From assembly GCA_951406725.2 (NCBI GenBank), contig OX597834.1, forward strand, positions 124,001 to 188,000: a DNA stretch of 64,000 bases, in the 5' to 3' direction. Under the pieces are notes generated by a model, which saw only the letters and a list, made by a program, of their open reading frames with translations, was not told the DNA's origin and made no database searches. Within the stretch, counting starts at the first letter, position 1. Each line of letters starts with the position of its first letter. Positions 19,275-49,665 of the stretch are shown here, in pieces. Position numbers and translations under genes: made by a program. The DNA comes from Octopus vulgaris (lineage: Eukaryota).

Positions 19275-19873
19275 TTATATAAATGGATATGAATGTTTTG
19301 GGGCCTCACAGAGGCAATTACGAAAGACTGAGACCTCTGTAGATATAATGTGACTGTGAAGACCTGGCAAATAAAGTGAGTTCACAGCAGTATCCTACAC
19401 AAGTTTTGCATAACCAGCCCAAGTCCACTCAAAGGTACCTTGGATCGTAGGGCGACCTGCTGTTCTTGAGGTGACCTTTTGAGTCAAGTACATCAACATC
19501 AACATGAAGATCAAATGGAAATTGTAGTTGTGATCCCAATGCTGGAGGCACATAAAAAGCACCATACAAACATGGCTGATGGCAGTGCCATCTTGACTGG
19601 CTTCCATGCTGGTGGCACGTAAAAAGCACCCACTACACTCAAAGAGTGATTGGCATTAAGAAGGGCATCCAGCTGTAGAAAAATTGCCAGATCAGACTGG
19701 AGCCTGGTGCAGCCTCCTGGCTTCCCAGACCACAGTCGAACCATTCAACCCATGCCAGCATGGAAAACAGACATTAAACAATGATGGTGATGACGACACA
19801 CACATAAATGAATATATGAATAATTATATATATATATAAATATATAAATATATATAAATATATAAATATATAT

Positions 19874-20388
19874 TGTAAAGTATAGAAGCCATCTTATCAT
19901 GGCTAACCACATAGGTGAGGGGGTGTTACTGTAGCTTTATAGCCCCAAGAGATCGTCGTCTCTAGCTGGCTTTAGACACCATATCAGTGCCCTTGAAGTA
20001 TTTGCAAAGGGAGGCCATCCCTACTTCGCAAGCCTGAGTGATACGCTTGAACTAGTTTCGGGATATTTGTCCCTTGTCAACGGGCGGTAACCACCAGGAT
20101 GCGACGAAAGTGAAGGCTTACTTGCAAATATATACGAGTTTTTCTAGTGGCATTTGTCTCTGATTTCGTAAAACTGACAGTAAGCATAATTAAATCTCAG
20201 AATGAGATTGCAAATACTTCAAGGGCACTGATATGGTGTCTAAAGCCAGCTAGAGACGACGATCTCTTGGGGCTATAAAGCTACAGTAACACCCCCTCCC
20301 CTATGTGGTTAGCCATGATAAGATGGCTTCTATACTTTACATTATCGAGCGATTACTGTTTCAATCTCATTCTGAGATTTAATTATGC
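19874..20388. mobile_element. Short fold-back element, probably PLE-derived, with overlapping inverted repeats inside (TA)n
   Basis: 134-bp near-perfect IR at 19874-20007 / 20208-20341. 27-bp IR at 20184-20210 / 20362-20388. Confidence 0.8.
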
Positions 20389-20418
20389 CTATAAATATAT
20401 ATATAAATATATAAATAA

Positions 20419-20459
<41 letters not shown>

Positions 20460-20702
20460 TATAAATATATAAATATATATATATAAATAGATAAATATAT
20501 ATATATAAATATATAAATATATATATATAAATATATAAATATATATATATATAAATATATAAATATATATATATAAATATATATATATAAATATATATAT
20601 ATGAATATATATATATAAATATATATATATAAATATATATATATAAATATAAATATATATATATAAATGTATAAATATAAATATATAAATATAAATATAT
20701 AA

Positions 20703-20761
<59 letters not shown>

Positions 20762-20803
20762 TAAATAAATGGAGTTTAACGCAGGTGTAAATCAAATATT
20801 TTT

Positions 20804-20889
20804 ACTTTCGACACATGTTTCAAAAATTCCACTGATACTATTCAAAAGAATAAATGGTATAAACAATGCAATCTTCTCCTCAGGAAAGT
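20804..20889 (-). ncRNA. Type I hammerhead ribozyme in the Cav2 sense orientation
   Basis: Reverse complement of the motif above. The base pair of helix II next to the core is G-U instead of G-C. Confidence 0.7.
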
Positions 20890-21663
20890 GAAAAAAGCGA
20901 AACTTGTCAATAAGACATTTTAGCAAAAAATGATGGATTTGTATAGCGATTGACAGAACGCTATTAATATTGTTTAAAAAAACGTTATATGATATATAAT
21001 ACCATCCAACCCTCTAGAAATATTAATAACAAGGTTATTGTATCTGAAGTCAATTCCAATAGAATTAAGTTTATGTCAAGTAACTCTAAGATTAAAAATT
21101 CTATATACCAGTGTATAATCAGTACTCGTAATAAAGTACGATTTTACATTGGAAGCACATCGTTAGAGTTATCTAAAAGAATTTCTATCCATTACTCAAC
21201 ATTTAGGGATAGAAATAAAAGCAATAGTACCGGTCTCATCAAACTGATTTGGGATTTAAAAGACCACAATGAACAATTTCATTTAGAATGGTTGATTCTC
21301 TCAATTTCGATACCTTATGACAAAGGCAAGGAATTCTGTCTTCTCTGCAATTCTGAGCTATTTTTCATTATTTTTTCTAAAAATACTCTAGTAAACACGG
21401 TTATAGAGCGAGCATACAGATGTAAGCATAGGCAAAAACACACATTTAGTGCATATAAGTAGTCTCTATCATTATATATAATTTAAACTTTAATTTCCTT
21501 TATATTTAACATTCACTGTTAATATCCCTGCTCTTTCTGTTAGCTACTTATGACGTTATATCATATAACGTTTTTTTAAACAATATTAATAGCGTTCTGT
21601 CAATCGCTATACAAATCCATCATTTTTTGCTAAAATGTCTTATTGACGAGTTTCGTTTTTTTC

Positions 21664-21749
21664 ACTTTCCTGAGGAGAAGATTGCATTGTTTATACCATT
21701 TATTCTTTTGAATAGTATCAGTGGAATTTTCGAAACATGTGTCGAAAGT
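21664..21749 (+). ncRNA. Type I hammerhead ribozyme, canonical core
   Basis: Helix I ACTTTC/GAAAGT; CTGAGGA; helix II GAAGATTGCATTG/CAGTGGAATTTTC; GAAA; minimal helix III with palindromic ACATGT; GTC site, predicted cut after 21743. Confidence 0.8.
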
Positions 21750-21804
21750 AAAAATATTTGATTTACACCTGCGTTAAACTCCATTTATTTATTCATATAT
21801 TATT

Positions 21805-21851
<47 letters not shown>

Positions 21852-21893
21852 TAAATAAATGGAGTTTAACGCAGGTGTAAATCAAATATTTTT

Positions 21894-21979
21894 ACTTTCG
21901 ACACATGTTTCAAAAATTCCACTGATACTATTCAAAAGAATAAATGGTATAAACAATGCAATCTTCTCCTCAGGAAAGT
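21894..21979 (-). ncRNA. Type I hammerhead ribozyme in the Cav2 sense orientation (copy 2)
   Basis: Same sequence as 20804-20889. Confidence 0.7.
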
Positions 21980-22753
21980 GAAAAAAGCGAAACTTGTCAA
22001 TAAGACATTTTAGCAAAAAATGATGGATTTGTATAGCGATTGACAGAACGCTATTAATATTGTTTAAAAAAACGTTATATGATATATAATACCATCCAAC
22101 CCTCTAGAAATATTAATAACAAGGTTATTGTATCTGAAGTCAATTCCAATAGAATTAAGTTTATGTCAAGTAACTCTAAGATTAAAAATTCTATATACCA
22201 GTGTATAATCAGTACTCGTAATAAAGTACGATTTTACATTGGAAGCACATCGTTAGAGTTATCTAAAAGAATTTCTATCCATTACTCAACATTTAGGGAT
22301 AGAAATAAAAGCAATAGTACCGGTCTCATCAAACTGATTTGGGATTTAAAAGACCACAATGAACAATTTCATTTAGAATGGTTGATTCTCTCAATTTCGA
22401 TACCTTATGACAAAGGCAAGGAATTCTGTCTTCTCTGCAATTCTGAGCTATTTTTCATTATTTTTTCTAAAAATACTCTAGTAAACACGGTTATAGAGCG
22501 AGCATACAGATGTAAGCATAGGCAAAAACACACATTTAGTGCATATAAGTAGTCTCTATCATTATATATAATTTAAACTTTAATTTCCTTTATATTTAAC
22601 ATTCACTGTTAATATCCCTGCTCTTTCTGTTAGCTACTTATGACGTTATATCATATAACGTTTTTTTAAACAATATTAATAGCGTTCTGTCAATCGCTAT
22701 ACAAATCCATCATTTTTTGCTAAAATGTCTTATTGACGAGTTTCGTTTTTTTC

Positions 22754-22839
22754 ACTTTCCTGAGGAGAAGATTGCATTGTTTATACCATTTATTCTTTTG
22801 AATAGTATCAGTGGAATTTTCGAAACATGTGTCGAAAGT
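22754..22839 (+). ncRNA. Type I hammerhead ribozyme, canonical core (copy 2)
   Basis: Same sequence as 21664-21749. Confidence 0.8.
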
Positions 22840-22894
22840 AAAAATATTTGATTTACACCTGCGTTAAACTCCATTTATTTATTCATATATTATT

Positions 22895-24745
<1,851 letters not shown>

Positions 24746-27647: not shown

Positions 27648-28401
27648 AAAAGAAGTTTGAAAACGCCACTATATAAGATAAATTTTAATTTTCTTAGAAA
27701 TTTTACATGTTTTGGTTCTTCTTGAAAAAACGAACCTTATCAAAAACATTTTTAAAAGTTAAGTGTAACAAAAAGGTTCATAGGCGCAGGAGTGGCTGTG
27801 TGGTAAGTAGCTTGCTTACCAACCACATGGTTCCGGGTTCAGTCCCACTGCGTGGCATCTTGGGCATGTATCTTCTGCTATAGCCCCGGACCGACCAATG
27901 CCTTGTGAGTGGATTTGGTAGATGGAAACTGAAAGAAGCCTGTCGTATATATGTATATATATATATGTATGTGTGTGTGTGTTTGTGTGTCTGTGTTTGT
28001 CCCCCTAGCATTGCTTGACAACCGATGCTGGTGTGTTTACGTCCCCGTCACTTAGCGGTTCGGCAAAAGAGACCGATAGAATAAGTAATGGGGTTACAAA
28101 GAATAAGTCCCGGGGTCGATTTGCTCGACTAAAGGTGGTGCTCCAGCATGGCCGCAGTCAAATGACTGAAACAAGTAAAAGAGTAAAAGAGTAAAGAGAG
28201 TAATTGTTTCTTACTAGTCTCAACAGAGTCGACGTGGTGGTTTTTTGAGACGAGTAAGAAAGAATTATGAACTTTTTTGTTACACTTAACTTTAAAAAAA
28301 TTTTTTGATATGGTTTGTTTTATTCAAGAATAACCGAAATACGTAAAATTTCTAAGAAAATTAAAATTTATCTTATATAGTGGTGTTTTCAAGCTTCTTT
28401 T
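27648..28401. mobile_element. Palindromic fold-back/MITE interrupted by a SINE in its left arm
   Basis: 27648-27782 pairs with 28266-28401. Pairing continues within 28201-28267 around a ~20-nt loop. Confidence 0.8.
27783..28200 (+). mobile_element. Full-length tRNA-derived SINE (CORE-like ttgggca..gt segment)
   Basis: A-box tggctgtgtggt, B-box ggttcagtccc, internal (TA)/(TG) tract, (GTAAAAGA)n tail. Near-identical copy at 49254-49665. Confidence 0.9.
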
Positions 28402-34954: not shown

Positions 34955-36645
34955 CAATGCTTCTCGTTCGCGGTTGAGTTCTACCAGCAGTGCTCGGGAG
35001 TGGCCATGGGAACAAGAATGGGCCCCAACTATGTTGAGGCCCAAATATTCTCTAGTTTCACTGGTCCCACTCTCGAACTATATGGCCATTATATTGACGA
35101 CTGTATCGGTGCCTCCTCACTCTCCCGCGAACATCTAGACTCCTTCCTCTCTTTCGTCCAATCTTTCCATCCTGCCCTCCACTTCTCCTGCACTATCTCT
35201 GACACTTCTGTCTCCTTTCTTGACATTTCAGTCAGCATTCATCACTCCATTCTTACCACCTCCATCCACTACAAACGCACAGACTCACACTCATACCTAA
35301 ACTTCTCCTCCTCCCACCCCAAACACACCAAACTTTCCATCCCCTATTCCCAATTCCTCCGTCTACACAGGCTCTGTAGTGACGACCATGACTTTGAAAT
35401 TCAGTCTCAACTCATGGCTCGCCACTTCATCCTACGTGGATATCCCCTAACCACTATCCACACCGCCCTTGCCAGAGCACGTTCCATGGACCGTGCATCT
35501 GCTCTCTCCCTCCAAACCCGCCCTGCAGTCTCCCGCCTCCCTTTTCCCCTCACCTACCACCCCACCATCCTACCTCTCCAATGCACCAGTCTCCGAGCTT
35601 TCCGGCATCTCCAGTCTGACCCATCCACTTCACACATCTTCCCTAACCGACCCTCCCCTCCTTCAAACGAGCCCACAACCTACGAGACCTCTTGGTCCAC
35701 AGCTTCTTCCCCAACCCTACCTCCCAACCTGGCTCATTCCCCTGCCCCCGCCCATGCTGCTGCACTTGCCTTTACCTCTCCAACACCACTCTCCTCACCG
35801 GCACCCATCATCGACCCTATCGCATCATCGACTCCTTCACCTGCACCTCCAGCAATATCATCTATTGCATCTCCTGCTCTCTCTGCCATTCCCTGTACAT
35901 CAGACAAACGGGACGCCACTTGGCTGACCGGTTCTCAGAACACCTCCGAGACATCTGCTTCGGCAATGACACCCCGGTCTCATGCCATTTCCGCTCCACT
36001 GGTCACTCCTTGCAACACCTGTCTGTGTCTGGATTGTCTTTGCACAGAGGCCATCCGGACTCCCGTTTGTGCCGTGAACAGGGATTAATCTTCTCTCTTC
36101 GCTCTTTTATGCCATTTGGGCTCAACTCTCCTCCCCTCTTCATCTAACTTCCTCCCCGACTCCTACTTCTCTTCACTCCTACATCTTTTCACCCCTACTC
36201 TCTTTCTCTCTGCTCCCTCACTCTCCTCTCCCCATCCCTCCTCCTTCTTCCCACCCAACTCTCCTCTCTTGCCCTGACTCCTACTTCTCTTCACTCCTAC
36301 TTCTCTTTCCCTCTTCTTTCCTACTCTCTTTCTCTCCCCTCTTCTCTCTCATTCTCTTTCTCTCTTACTCTTTCACTCTTCCCTCCTCCTCTCTCTTCAC
36401 TTTGTTATCTCCCCTACTTTCCTTCTCCAGTGTGACCCTTCTGTCCGAGTCAGATGCCATGATAGATCGTTAGCCACTACACACATTTGTTTTCTCTCCT
36501 TCTTTTCTGTGTCCCTTTCTGTAGAAGAGCGTAGGCTCGAAACGTAAAAGACTTTTTCTATTCCTGAGCGTTATACTAATACATCTGTTTGTTTTGTACA
36601 CCACTCGTCTTTGTCTTTTGATGTTTTTCTTGTAAACTCTCCATA
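34955..36645 (+). mobile_element. 5'-truncated Penelope-like retroelement (Neptune-like): RT, Cys-rich linker, GIY-YIG, 3' pLTR; frameshifted pseudocopy
   Basis: GVAMGTRMGPNY, YIDDC, FLDISV, SSSHP..K.SIPYSQFLRL, CPRPCCCTC and NIIYCISC...YIRQTGR.L..RFSEH. Hammerhead-like GAAGAGCgtagGCTCGAAACGT at ~36511-36552. Confidence 0.93.
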
Positions 36646-44985: not shown

Positions 44986-45599
44986 TATACATATATACGT
45001 ACACACACACACACATATATATATATATATCAATAACCATGTGCATATAACGATATAACTATACATGCATATATACACACACGCATATTCATTTACATAA
45101 TTACATACAGTGATATATATAATTATATTCATGTATATGGTCATACATATATACATACAGTCACACTAAAATAGATATAGAATCATTTCCAGTCAAAATA
45201 TGAAAATAGGAATAAAATATCTAAGAACTTCATGTGTCATGAATTAATACCTAGAAACTAATTAATAGCTAATTAGTACAAACAAATTGTTCCACTCAAC
45301 TAATATTTGAACCTGAAACTACTCTGCTCACAGAATATAAAAGATGTAAAGTTTTGTAATGATACATCAAAAGTAGGTAAATCTATTATATTAGAAATTA
45401 TTTAATCTAAATCATTATAATGACCAATTTTAGCGCTAACTTGTGATTAAAATGCACAGTGAACTGAATTAAAACAATTCTTTCAGTGTTACATAATAAT
45501 ACTGTAAAATGGCCAAGAAAGAGCAGGAATTTTATAATGAATATATTTAACTAGTCTAATGATAGGATTAAAAGATAAACAAATAAAATAAATAGAGCC

Positions 45600-46230
45600 A
45601 ACTCTAAACCCCAACAAGAAAAAATGCCACCATTAGGCCATCTGGTTTATATCCCCATTTAGGATCTTCCTTGGATTAGCAGATAAGTATTTTCCTAAAA
45701 AAAATACATACAGGAAAAATTTCAATAAGATACTTTGAGGGTCTCTTTTACCTGTGGACCTAGCTTAAAGAAAATTTTAGCAAATAAGCCCAAATCTAGC
45801 ATAGAGATAAACTGTTCGTTCAGATGTAACACCACAAGCCCACTAAATGGTCAGTATAACACAGAAACCATTACATGTGAAGCAGAAACAGCCTCAAAGA
45901 ATCCTAGCAGAGTGATAAATGTACAAAAATACACAGGTGCCATGGAAGCCTCCTTCAAGTCCAGGCTGCACAGCCACAAATGTTTGTGTCATATTCAAGA
46001 GAATGAAAATATAGGCAGAAAATACTGCACAATATAACACCGGGTGAAGACTGTACAGGCACAGACCTTCCATGAGCAGCAGTAGGATGTGCAAACTGTT
46101 AACAGAAAAAAAAATCATATTAAAGAACACTCCACCCAAGGGCTGACTGAGCTTTAAAAGTGAAATTATTTCTTACTGCCCTCATGAACTCAAGTTCATA
46201 TTAACCAGCTGGTCAGGCAGACCCAAAGTA
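45600..46230 (+). mobile_element. Decayed Penelope-like element, endonuclease region
   Basis: SFTCGPSLKKIL...PLNGQ...KYTGAMEASFKSRLHSHK. Confidence 0.7.
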
Positions 46231-47989: not shown

Positions 47990-48760
47990 AGAAGCAGTTG
48001 TAGATGAGAATATATTTTGTTTAGCTGAGCAACCAGAGGTCATGACTATTCTTCAAGGCATCTGAGTTTGGGAAAGAAGCTATCTTTACACAAAATGCTT
48101 ACAGATGCTTACAATGGGGTGGAGCACATCAAATGAAGCCAAGTGCCAAGCAGTTCTGTTAAACCGGTTGAGAGATAAAACTTAGACTTCTGCAAGATCA
48201 GTACCCAACCTAATGAAATAATGTCCAGAGGGTTAACACCAATGTTGGGTTTCTTGTGAAATGTAGCCACTGATCTCAATTGTCTGTGCATGGGTTTCAT
48301 GGAAGATCTGTTTATGTGGACGCAGTTGCAATGACAGAATATGGATAAGTGTTGATTCCACATATGCTCTGTAGGAGTCACAGGCAAGTGAAATTGAAGA
48401 AAAATGAGGGTGCATTTATGCAACCCTTCAAGAAATCAAATAGCCCCCATTGTACAGCCACATTCAATCTAAATGTCATCAAGCATTTATCACTAAACAT
48501 CTGCAAGAGGATAAATGCATTAGACTTTAATGAATTCAGCTTCCACAAAGCTGTAGTGTATGATAAGGAGGCACTACTAGGTTGCTGATGTCAAGAAGAG
48601 ACAAACACTTGCAACTGCACTCCCCAAACCATAAAAACATTAAGAAGAGAAATGTTATATGGAACAACCCACCGTACAATAATGCTGTAGAAACTAGTAT
48701 TACAACTCATTTCATGAACAGCCTTAAATGCTGTAAATTATTTAACAAAATCAACAGCAG
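47990..48760 (+). mobile_element. Decayed Penelope-like element, RT region
   Basis: PFKKSNSP, NVIKHLSLNICKRI and KRNVIWNNPPYN (PLE IWFNPPF-type motif). Confidence 0.7.
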
Positions 48761-49253
48761 CACCAGTAACACTGTTAACGTAAATATAGTGCAGACAAAC
48801 ATAGAATGAAAGGAGCTGAGAAACACTCTCAAAATATAGAGTTTAGCCTCATAAAAGAGGGATGTTTAGAGAAAATATTGTATGTTGTGCTAATGTCTTC
48901 AGCAATAACCCTTTTCATCATTAGCGTCAGGAAAACAGCAAATTTGGAAATCAAGAAACAAAGCCCTCAGTATCTCAGAGGCAGTATTAGAAGAGATACA
49001 GGTATTTAAGAAGGGATCAAAGTGTTATGGTGTCTGTATTCTATAGAAACTCCATTCCATTTGCTGTCACATCTTAATCTTAAATTAAAAAAAACACACC
49101 AGCCAATACTGACTTGTTGAAACATGCTCAAATTCTATGTTGGGGATTTCAAGGAAGTTTCACCAGATGCATAGTGTCTCTTGTCATGCAAGAGCCTGGG
49201 CTATCACCAGATGTGAAGTAATTTAAAAAGAGGAGAAAATCATAAAGAAATAA

Positions 49254-49401
49254 GTGGTAAGTAGCTTGCTAACCAACCACATGGTTCCGGGTTCAATCTC
49301 ACTGCGTGGCATCTTGGGCAAGTGTCTTCTGCTATAGCCCCGGGCTGACCAATACCTTGTGAGTGGATTTGCTAGACGGAAACTGAAAGAAACCTGTCGT
49401 A

Positions 49402-49448
<47 letters not shown>

Positions 49449-49665
49449 TTATGTTTGTGTGTCTGTGTCCCCCTAGCATTGCTTGACAACCGATGCTGGT
49501 GTGTTTATGCCCCCATCACTTAGCGGTTCGGCAAAAGAGACCGATAGAATAAGTACTGGGCTTACAAAGAATAAGTCCCGGGGTCGATTTGCTCGACTAA
49601 AGGTGGTGCTCCAGCATGGCCACAGTCAATTGACTGAAACAAGTAAAAGAGTAAGAGTAAAAGTT
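49254..49665 (+). mobile_element. tRNA-derived SINE, same family as 27783-28200
   Basis: Near-identical sequence, slightly 5'-truncated. Confidence 0.9.

Follow-up and report, generated by a model that had tools for sequence, protein, structure and literature searches.

The general structure of Penelope-like elements (PLEs) and the recently active PLE families of Octopus vulgaris have been described (PMC13282606, PMC8969392, in excerpt). Elements of the Hydra clade are EN+ PLEs with a C-terminal endonuclease (EN), which is of the GIY-YIG type without CCHH, and they insert in (TA)n. Inverted 5'-truncated copies are typical of PLEs, and Penelope-13_HM is listed with one (PMC8557442, in excerpt). 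In the Pen2 subfamily of Adineta vaga, 5'-truncated copies are flanked by inverted 212-bp pLTRs and the linkers are Asn-rich (PMC3846280, in excerpt). In Schistosoma, dual minimal hammerheads lie on opposite strands, 100-700 bp apart, and the cleavage of minimal PLE hammerheads was low even for dimers (PMC4209133, in excerpt). The anole hammerhead is protein-assisted and was dispensable for insertion in vitro (PMC11167929, in excerpt). Animal non-LTR retrozymes are about 170-400 nt long (PMC7229834, in excerpt); retrozymes are held to derive from pLTRs, and one of nine dimers was cleaved (10.64898/2026.07.22.740005, in excerpt).

We analysed a locus in a 64-kb stretch of O. vulgaris DNA (the window), in which a unit with a GIY-YIG frame stands twice in tandem. 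The locus is very probably a single copy, truncated at its 5' end, of a Penelope-like retroelement that is abundant and has a Hydra-like EN; the copy would have inserted in (TA)n, and it was likely doubled later. Its features, in positions of the window, are as follows.

20715..20752: pure (TA)n flanking unit 1 on the left, the end of the TA-rich tract 20390-20770; insertion target
20753..20996, minus strand: unit 1 left arm, an inverted, 5'-truncated copy of the element 3' end (inverted pLTR), 241/244 complementary to 21557-21800
20804..20889, minus strand: type I hammerhead motif of left arm 1, with a G10.1-U11.1 wobble
20989..21462, plus strand: 157-codon frame of unit 1, with its ATG from the inverted arm, then the linker end and a Hydra-like GIY-YIG endonuclease
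20996..20997: inversion/truncation junction, upstream of which other family copies run on with different sequence
21463..21556, plus strand: 3' untranslated stretch from the stop codon to the arm
21557..21800, plus strand: right arm of unit 1 and genuine 3' end of the element; contigs of the family exit at 21800, mostly into TA-rich letters
21664..21749, plus strand: type I hammerhead motif of right arm 1, predicted cut after 21743
21801..21842: 42-nt spacer, a 6-nt extension and pure (AT)18
21843..22086, minus strand: unit 2 left arm, with a hammerhead motif on the minus strand at 21894-21979
22079..22552, plus strand: endonuclease frame of unit 2, identical to that of unit 1
22647..22890, plus strand: unit 2 right arm; its hammerhead motif (plus strand, 22754-22839) is predicted to cut after 22833
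22891..22939: the same 6-nt extension as in the spacer and a pure TA run; the TA tract extends to 24745

Each base of 20717-21848 matches the base 1090 positions further on, and blastn aligned unit 1 (20753-21800) with unit 2 (21843-22890) at 1048 of 1048 positions. With this identity over 1132 bp, the two identical tandem 1090-bp units reported in a preliminary description of the locus are present in the assembly sequence, as are the 244-bp inverted repeats that it gave to each unit. The arms (20753-20996 and 21557-21800 in unit 1) flank a 560-bp core and differ by three mismatches, 20822/21731, 20897/21656 and 20905/21648, two of which are at CpG sites. All three are common to both units. 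The duplicated segment ends within runs of pure TA, 44, 42 and 43 nt in length. At the 3' end only the 6-nt extension (21801-21806) is found; a PLE tail of 30-40 nt, which is optional, is not seen, a point against the reading as a PLE copy.

The arms thus show 3 differences in 244 positions and the units 0 in 1048, which has a probability of P=0.007 if both were equally old. Because the arm mismatches are shared and the ends lie in TA tracts, the tandem appears to have formed later, either at the DNA level or in the assembly, and the simplest and most likely order would be insertion, ageing and then duplication. It is possible, if doubtful, that the tandem is an assembly artefact, in which TA runs were mis-joined and a single insertion thereby entered the sequence two times; we treat it as a variant form of the duplication step, included in the confidence that we place in the reading as a whole. 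Such structures trouble assemblies (PMC8557442, in excerpt), and a mis-join would fit the finding of 0 differences over 1132 bp between ends that are each set in 42-44 nt of pure TA, whereas microsatellite-mediated duplication yields an identical picture. The 64-kb window contains no N letters, and extended imperfect TA tracts are resolved in the assembly on both flanks, which suggests long reads and argues against an artefact.

The locus resembles the Hydra clade in its (TA)n target, in a hammerhead near the 3' end and in an inverted copy at the 5' end (PMC8557442, in excerpt). It also shares the fold-back layout of the truncated Pen2 copies, with an arm of 244 bp here and of 212 bp there (PMC3846280, in excerpt). 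In contrast to the Pen2 copies, the target-site duplication is unreadable in (TA)n, the end carries a 6-nt extension rather than a tail of 30-40 nt, and the octopus unit has no direct pLTR beside the inverted one.

Other repetitive sequences are found in the window. A second, unrelated fold-back insertion (19870-20393) lies just upstream of the locus, between TA tracts. Its 138-bp inverted arms are 98.6% identical, and its 3' extension is the complement of roughly 20178-20217; a core resembling that of a hammerhead, at about 20033-20125, failed the motif scan and gave no hammerhead fold. Old, frameshifted remnants of Hydra-like PLEs were detected by tblastn at 45595-46230, 48361-48770 and 35066-35461 (thumb, linker and EN; RT pieces), and 27800-28195 and 49254-49661 form a dispersed 400-bp repeat pair with 90% identity.

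The unit 1 frame runs from ATG 20989 to the stop codon at 21460-21462 and encodes 157 aa without interruption, three of its codons being touched by the inverted arm. No RT match was found inside the units by tblastn with 227 proteins, and the uninterrupted 157-codon GIY-YIG ORF without RT described earlier is therefore correct. The Pfam GIY-YIG match of the frame (E=0.0013) was below the curated cut-off, a PDB sequence search with a 64-sequence profile gave 1 weak match (E=0.32), and in word-indexed protein searches with the ORF none of the candidates of near or greater length was a match (0 of 20 and 0 of 331). A phmmer search with the ORF protein found 1906 relatives at E<=0.001, the best 150 of which were examined; the closest named relatives among these 150 are Octopus sinensis proteins. 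In an alignment of 64 sequences, the near-invariant residues (Y40, Y53, G55, R64, H68, E123 and N136) are all kept in the frame, and the consensus, with its CxxC, E, N and CxH, is of the PLE nuclease type. The frame contains no CCHH, and C117-x2-C120 and C145-x-H147 flank E123 and N136. The lack of CCHH, a CxxC before E and a CxH after N are shared with the Hydra clade (Penelope-13_HM, Hydra-1_Obim; PMC8557442, in excerpt).

Unlike Hydra clade elements, the octopus copy has neither the CxCX5C linker nor an RT part, in which the clade has the motifs RWK and DKT, and its whole unit is doubled. There is no Cys in residues 1-41 of the window protein, and since the CxCX5C linker is missing, we filed the frame as Hydra-like rather than as a member of the Hydra clade. 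The linker is likewise free of cysteine in P0001, P0002, P0004, P0013, P0030 and P0151, and a CxC-x(3-9)-C pattern was found in 53 of the best 150 of the 1906 matches. P0216 and P0221 were dropped as members with a Cys-less linker, their regular-expression matches having fallen in other regions.

RT-EN proteins align with the frame through their C-terminal EN. One relative, P0151 (Octopus sinensis by source; 544 aa), shares 55% identity with the frame over 75 aa, and the upstream part of P0151 has RT motifs, 31% identity to the full-length P0101 over 159 aa and an Asn-rich linker; P0002 has an RT-thumb end upstream of the nuclease. Because P0151 and P0002 carry RT parts upstream, this type of nuclease appears to be the C-terminal domain of an RT-EN protein. 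No contig or protein was found that joins exactly this family to an RT, and the link is made through the 55%-identical relative P0151. RT motifs were present in only 6 of the best 150 of the 1906 protein matches, which counts against the reading as a truncated copy. Most of the remaining matches among these 150 are short, and some might conceivably be stand-alone nucleases. The top unnamed ones come from contigs of 0.9-2.4 kb, and short predictions of this kind are what one would expect from truncated copies and short contigs.

At least half of the unit's words were present in 20 of the 24 sequencing runs listed, under four organism labels. Four of the runs were aligned to 20945-21812, which covers 868 of the 2138 bases, including 52 bases of the left arm, and 2684 contigs of X1, 2427 of X3 and 47 of X6 were placed there; X6 is taken as RNA by guess only. 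The runs may differ from the individual or the species of the window, and contigs lose rare variants. X24, which consists of raw DNA reads and shares its species label with X1, gave 5 reads from 1934 million letters, as against the 2684 contigs of X1, and none of the 5 was close to the junction or the spacer; the label, a filter or a lineage-specific expansion may account for the difference.

Among the contig ends listed at 20997, 22 (X1), 12 (X3) and 2 (X6) ran on upstream, in X1 and X3 with the proviso that contigs spanning the junction would align unflagged. The upstream continuation is one shared sequence, with an agreement of 0.90-1.0, and is unlike the left arm. The preliminary description had cautioned that its ATG sits at the inversion junction and that the unit may be just a 5'-truncated insertion, and the family contigs upstream of 20997 bear this caution out. 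Judged by eye, the 30 upstream letters contain no stop when read in the EN frame, unlike in the two other frames; over about 10 codons this is weak alone. These letters are Asn/Thr/Ile-rich and resemble the linker of the relatives; Asn-rich RT-EN linkers, found in octopus relatives, are also a likeness to Pen2 (PMC3846280, in excerpt). It is possible that the 30 letters are instead the end of an intron, since they contain a motif like a branch point and, close to the junction, an AG, although they are also open in the EN frame. The depth left of 20997 was nil in X6. At the other end, 24, 11 and 1 contigs (X1, X3 and X6) exited at 21800, mostly into TA-rich letters and with an agreement of about 0.5 in X1 and X3. 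Strand-switch joints elsewhere were found at 21534/21751 (X1) and 21543/21702 (X6), in one contig each among the joints listed; their various places are as heterogeneous truncation predicts.

The same runs bear on whether the fold-back unit is a mobile mini-element without RT, copied twice by a partner's RT through template jumping or a circle, with a nuclease possibly made from the junction ATG. The private alleles of this copy include those at 21220, 21222, 21239 and 21518. At 21239, the other letter accounted for 148750.6 of 148750.6 units of summed contig depth in X1 and 119039.8 of 119080.3 in X3, and at 21518 for 1279 of 1326.3 and 202405.7 of 202405.7, respectively; this depth is not a copy number. 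The window's own letters at the two positions thus had 0 to 47 depth units against about 1,300 to 200,000. Since the two DNA contig runs either lack the private alleles at these positions or show them at a depth close to that of a single contig, the haplotype of this copy does not appear to be amplified in X1 and X3. The letter at 21239 also makes codon 84 Ile, where the family majority letter gives the conserved Ser of the TxLSK motif. A mobile mini-element would further need a master copy elsewhere, of which there was no sign in the contig runs, and any nuclease made from it would start at an ATG that lies within the arm duplex and behind 7 upstream ATGs, each reaching a stop before ATG 20989.

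Some observations do agree with a mini-element. The frame is intact and has the catalytic residues, pLTRs are enough for mobilisation in trans (PMC3846280, in excerpt), and head-to-tail multicopy non-autonomous Chlamys elements exist (PMC8557442, in excerpt). A common template would also explain the shared arm mismatches, and the left-arm allele 21731 T occurs elsewhere in the family, with a share of 4-7% of the depth in both X1 and X3. We found no description of a mobile EN-only PLE in the literature searched, as far as the excerpts of those papers extend. Considering that the family runs upstream, that the ATG comes from the arm and that the haplotype is not amplified, an endonuclease-only mini-element is not supported, and we consider it quite unlikely.

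We scanned the window for type I hammerhead motifs and found exactly 4 in 64 kb, 2 per strand, compared to 1 in total in 20 Markov-simulated windows. The four putative hammerheads claimed earlier are accordingly the only motifs of the window; being copies of one sequence, they are not independent evidence. An Rfam search at the gathering threshold gave 0 matches. The plus-strand motif comprises stem I (21664-69/21744-49), the core CTGAGGA (21670-76), a 55-nt stem-loop II, GAAAC (21733-37) and a stem III of 2 bp with a 4-nt loop. Its layout predicts cuts after 21743 and 22833, the same positions as had been proposed. Its 55-nt stem-loop II distinguishes it from the Hydra-1_oBim motif (File S2 of PMC8557442, in excerpt). 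In the left-arm (minus-strand) motifs, a G-U replaces the G10.1-C11.1 pair, and stem I had a probability of 0.09 in the isolated fold, as compared to 0.73 for the plus-strand motif. The centroid fold of the isolated plus-strand motif has stems I and II, with a stem II probability of 0.84. Taken together, the EN alignment and the motif scan point to the Penelope-like identity with minimal type I hammerheads that had been suggested. In the family, the hammerhead core is often CCGAAGA, a U4C variant (21671, 21674), with C at 21671 in 43% (X1), 77% (X3) and 80% (X6) of family depth; this copy has the canonical core. A 19-nt pattern matched metagenome contigs at 4 loci, which we rejected as chance matches, the similarity not being extended.

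Folding predictions were less favorable when both arms were present. The 244-bp duplex then had a probability of 0.99, and stems I and II had a probability of 0.00 on either strand, which agrees with the earlier caution that the inverted-repeat duplex would compete with ribozyme folding. The predicted energy was -386 kcal/mol for the arm duplex versus -18.7 kcal/mol for the constrained hammerhead. In the MFE structure of two units, both plus-strand hammerheads were unfolded. A transcript starting within core 1 freed stem II of the second motif alone, and the dimer partner would therefore be missing. Without the inverted arm (20997-21810), stem I had a probability of 0.0003 and stem II of 0.86 at equilibrium; folding predictions are hence a blunt guide, since stem I was lost even then.

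These predictions concern the proposal that the doubled locus works as a retrozyme, with dimeric cuts after 21743 and 22833 and a 1090-nt product that is ligated into a circle, for one strand or for both. The head-to-tail units with a same-strand type I hammerhead each are like those of metazoan non-LTR retrozymes (PMC7229834; 10.64898/2026.07.22.740005; both in excerpt), the core and stems are canonical, and the stem III region was predicted to self-pair at -6.0 kcal/mol. Unlike retrozymes, the unit is 1090 nt long, has a coding remnant (the 157-codon frame) and carries an extended inverted repeat in which the ribozyme is predicted to be buried (PMC7229834, in excerpt), and the octopus locus is one dimer only, known here from sequence alone. 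The plus-strand hammerheads were never both free in any computed fold. Minimal PLE hammerheads cut poorly even as dimers (PMC4209133, in excerpt), 1 of 9 Xenopus dimers was cleaved in vitro (10.64898/2026.07.22.740005, in excerpt), the anole element gave no RNA ends at the cut site (PMC11167929, in excerpt), and no promoter is known for the octopus locus. The circular monomer was predicted to be 74% paired overall, a point in favor of a retrozyme, whereas its 560-nt core was just 52% paired, and the RNA would not be a true rod; the rod-like 1.09-kb RNA of the preliminary description is not borne out by this model. With the arm duplex predicted to sequester every hammerhead, excision of a retrozyme-like RNA finds no support, and we regard a functional retrozyme as extremely unlikely, though cleavage at a low level is conceivable.

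The preferred reading, a truncated insertion doubled later, suggests the following sequence of events. An autonomous RT-linker-EN element, as its relatives indicate, would have nicked (TA)n and been reverse-transcribed from its 3' end. Synthesis would have halted 804 nt in, at 20997, and the 244-nt inverted copy of the 3' end that is seen in the sequence would have been joined there, supplying by chance an in-frame ATG and a second hammerhead on the opposite strand. Ageing may then have introduced the 3 arm mismatches and the private coding changes, and the doubling of the whole unit probably arose in the TA runs, through slippage or unequal crossover. A read-through transcript is predicted to form 244-bp duplexes that bury the hammerheads, giving long double-stranded RNA rather than a self-excising monomer. 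No minus-strand ATG frame of more than 40 codons was found. If the locus is transcribed, its RNA is thus most likely long double-stranded RNA, as judged from the folding model. Long double-stranded RNA is a substrate for editing or small-RNA pathways.

Overall, it is very unlikely that the fold-back unit, with a nuclease alone, is a mobile mini-element of Penelope origin and that its tandem gives a 1.09-kb circular RNA, cut by hammerheads and bearing an intact GIY-YIG frame. If this were true, the locus would be a protein-coding retrozyme at birth and a bridge between PLEs and retrozymes. As read here, the locus is of limited importance, since truncated fold-back copies are standard PLE debris and microsatellite-bounded doubling is ordinary. 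It does offer an example of how the end of a PLE may turn into a tandem that carries hammerheads on the same strand, which is the step with which retrozymes are proposed to begin (10.64898/2026.07.22.740005, in excerpt), and the inverted arm would block this route from PLE to retrozyme. A separate observation concerns the octopus Hydra-like lineage (window 20989-21111), the three named members of which are from Octopus sinensis: its linker is free of cysteine, and the family still ends in (TA)n. This Cys-less octopus lineage would test the suggestion that the CxCX5C linker directs microsatellite targeting (PMC8557442, in excerpt).
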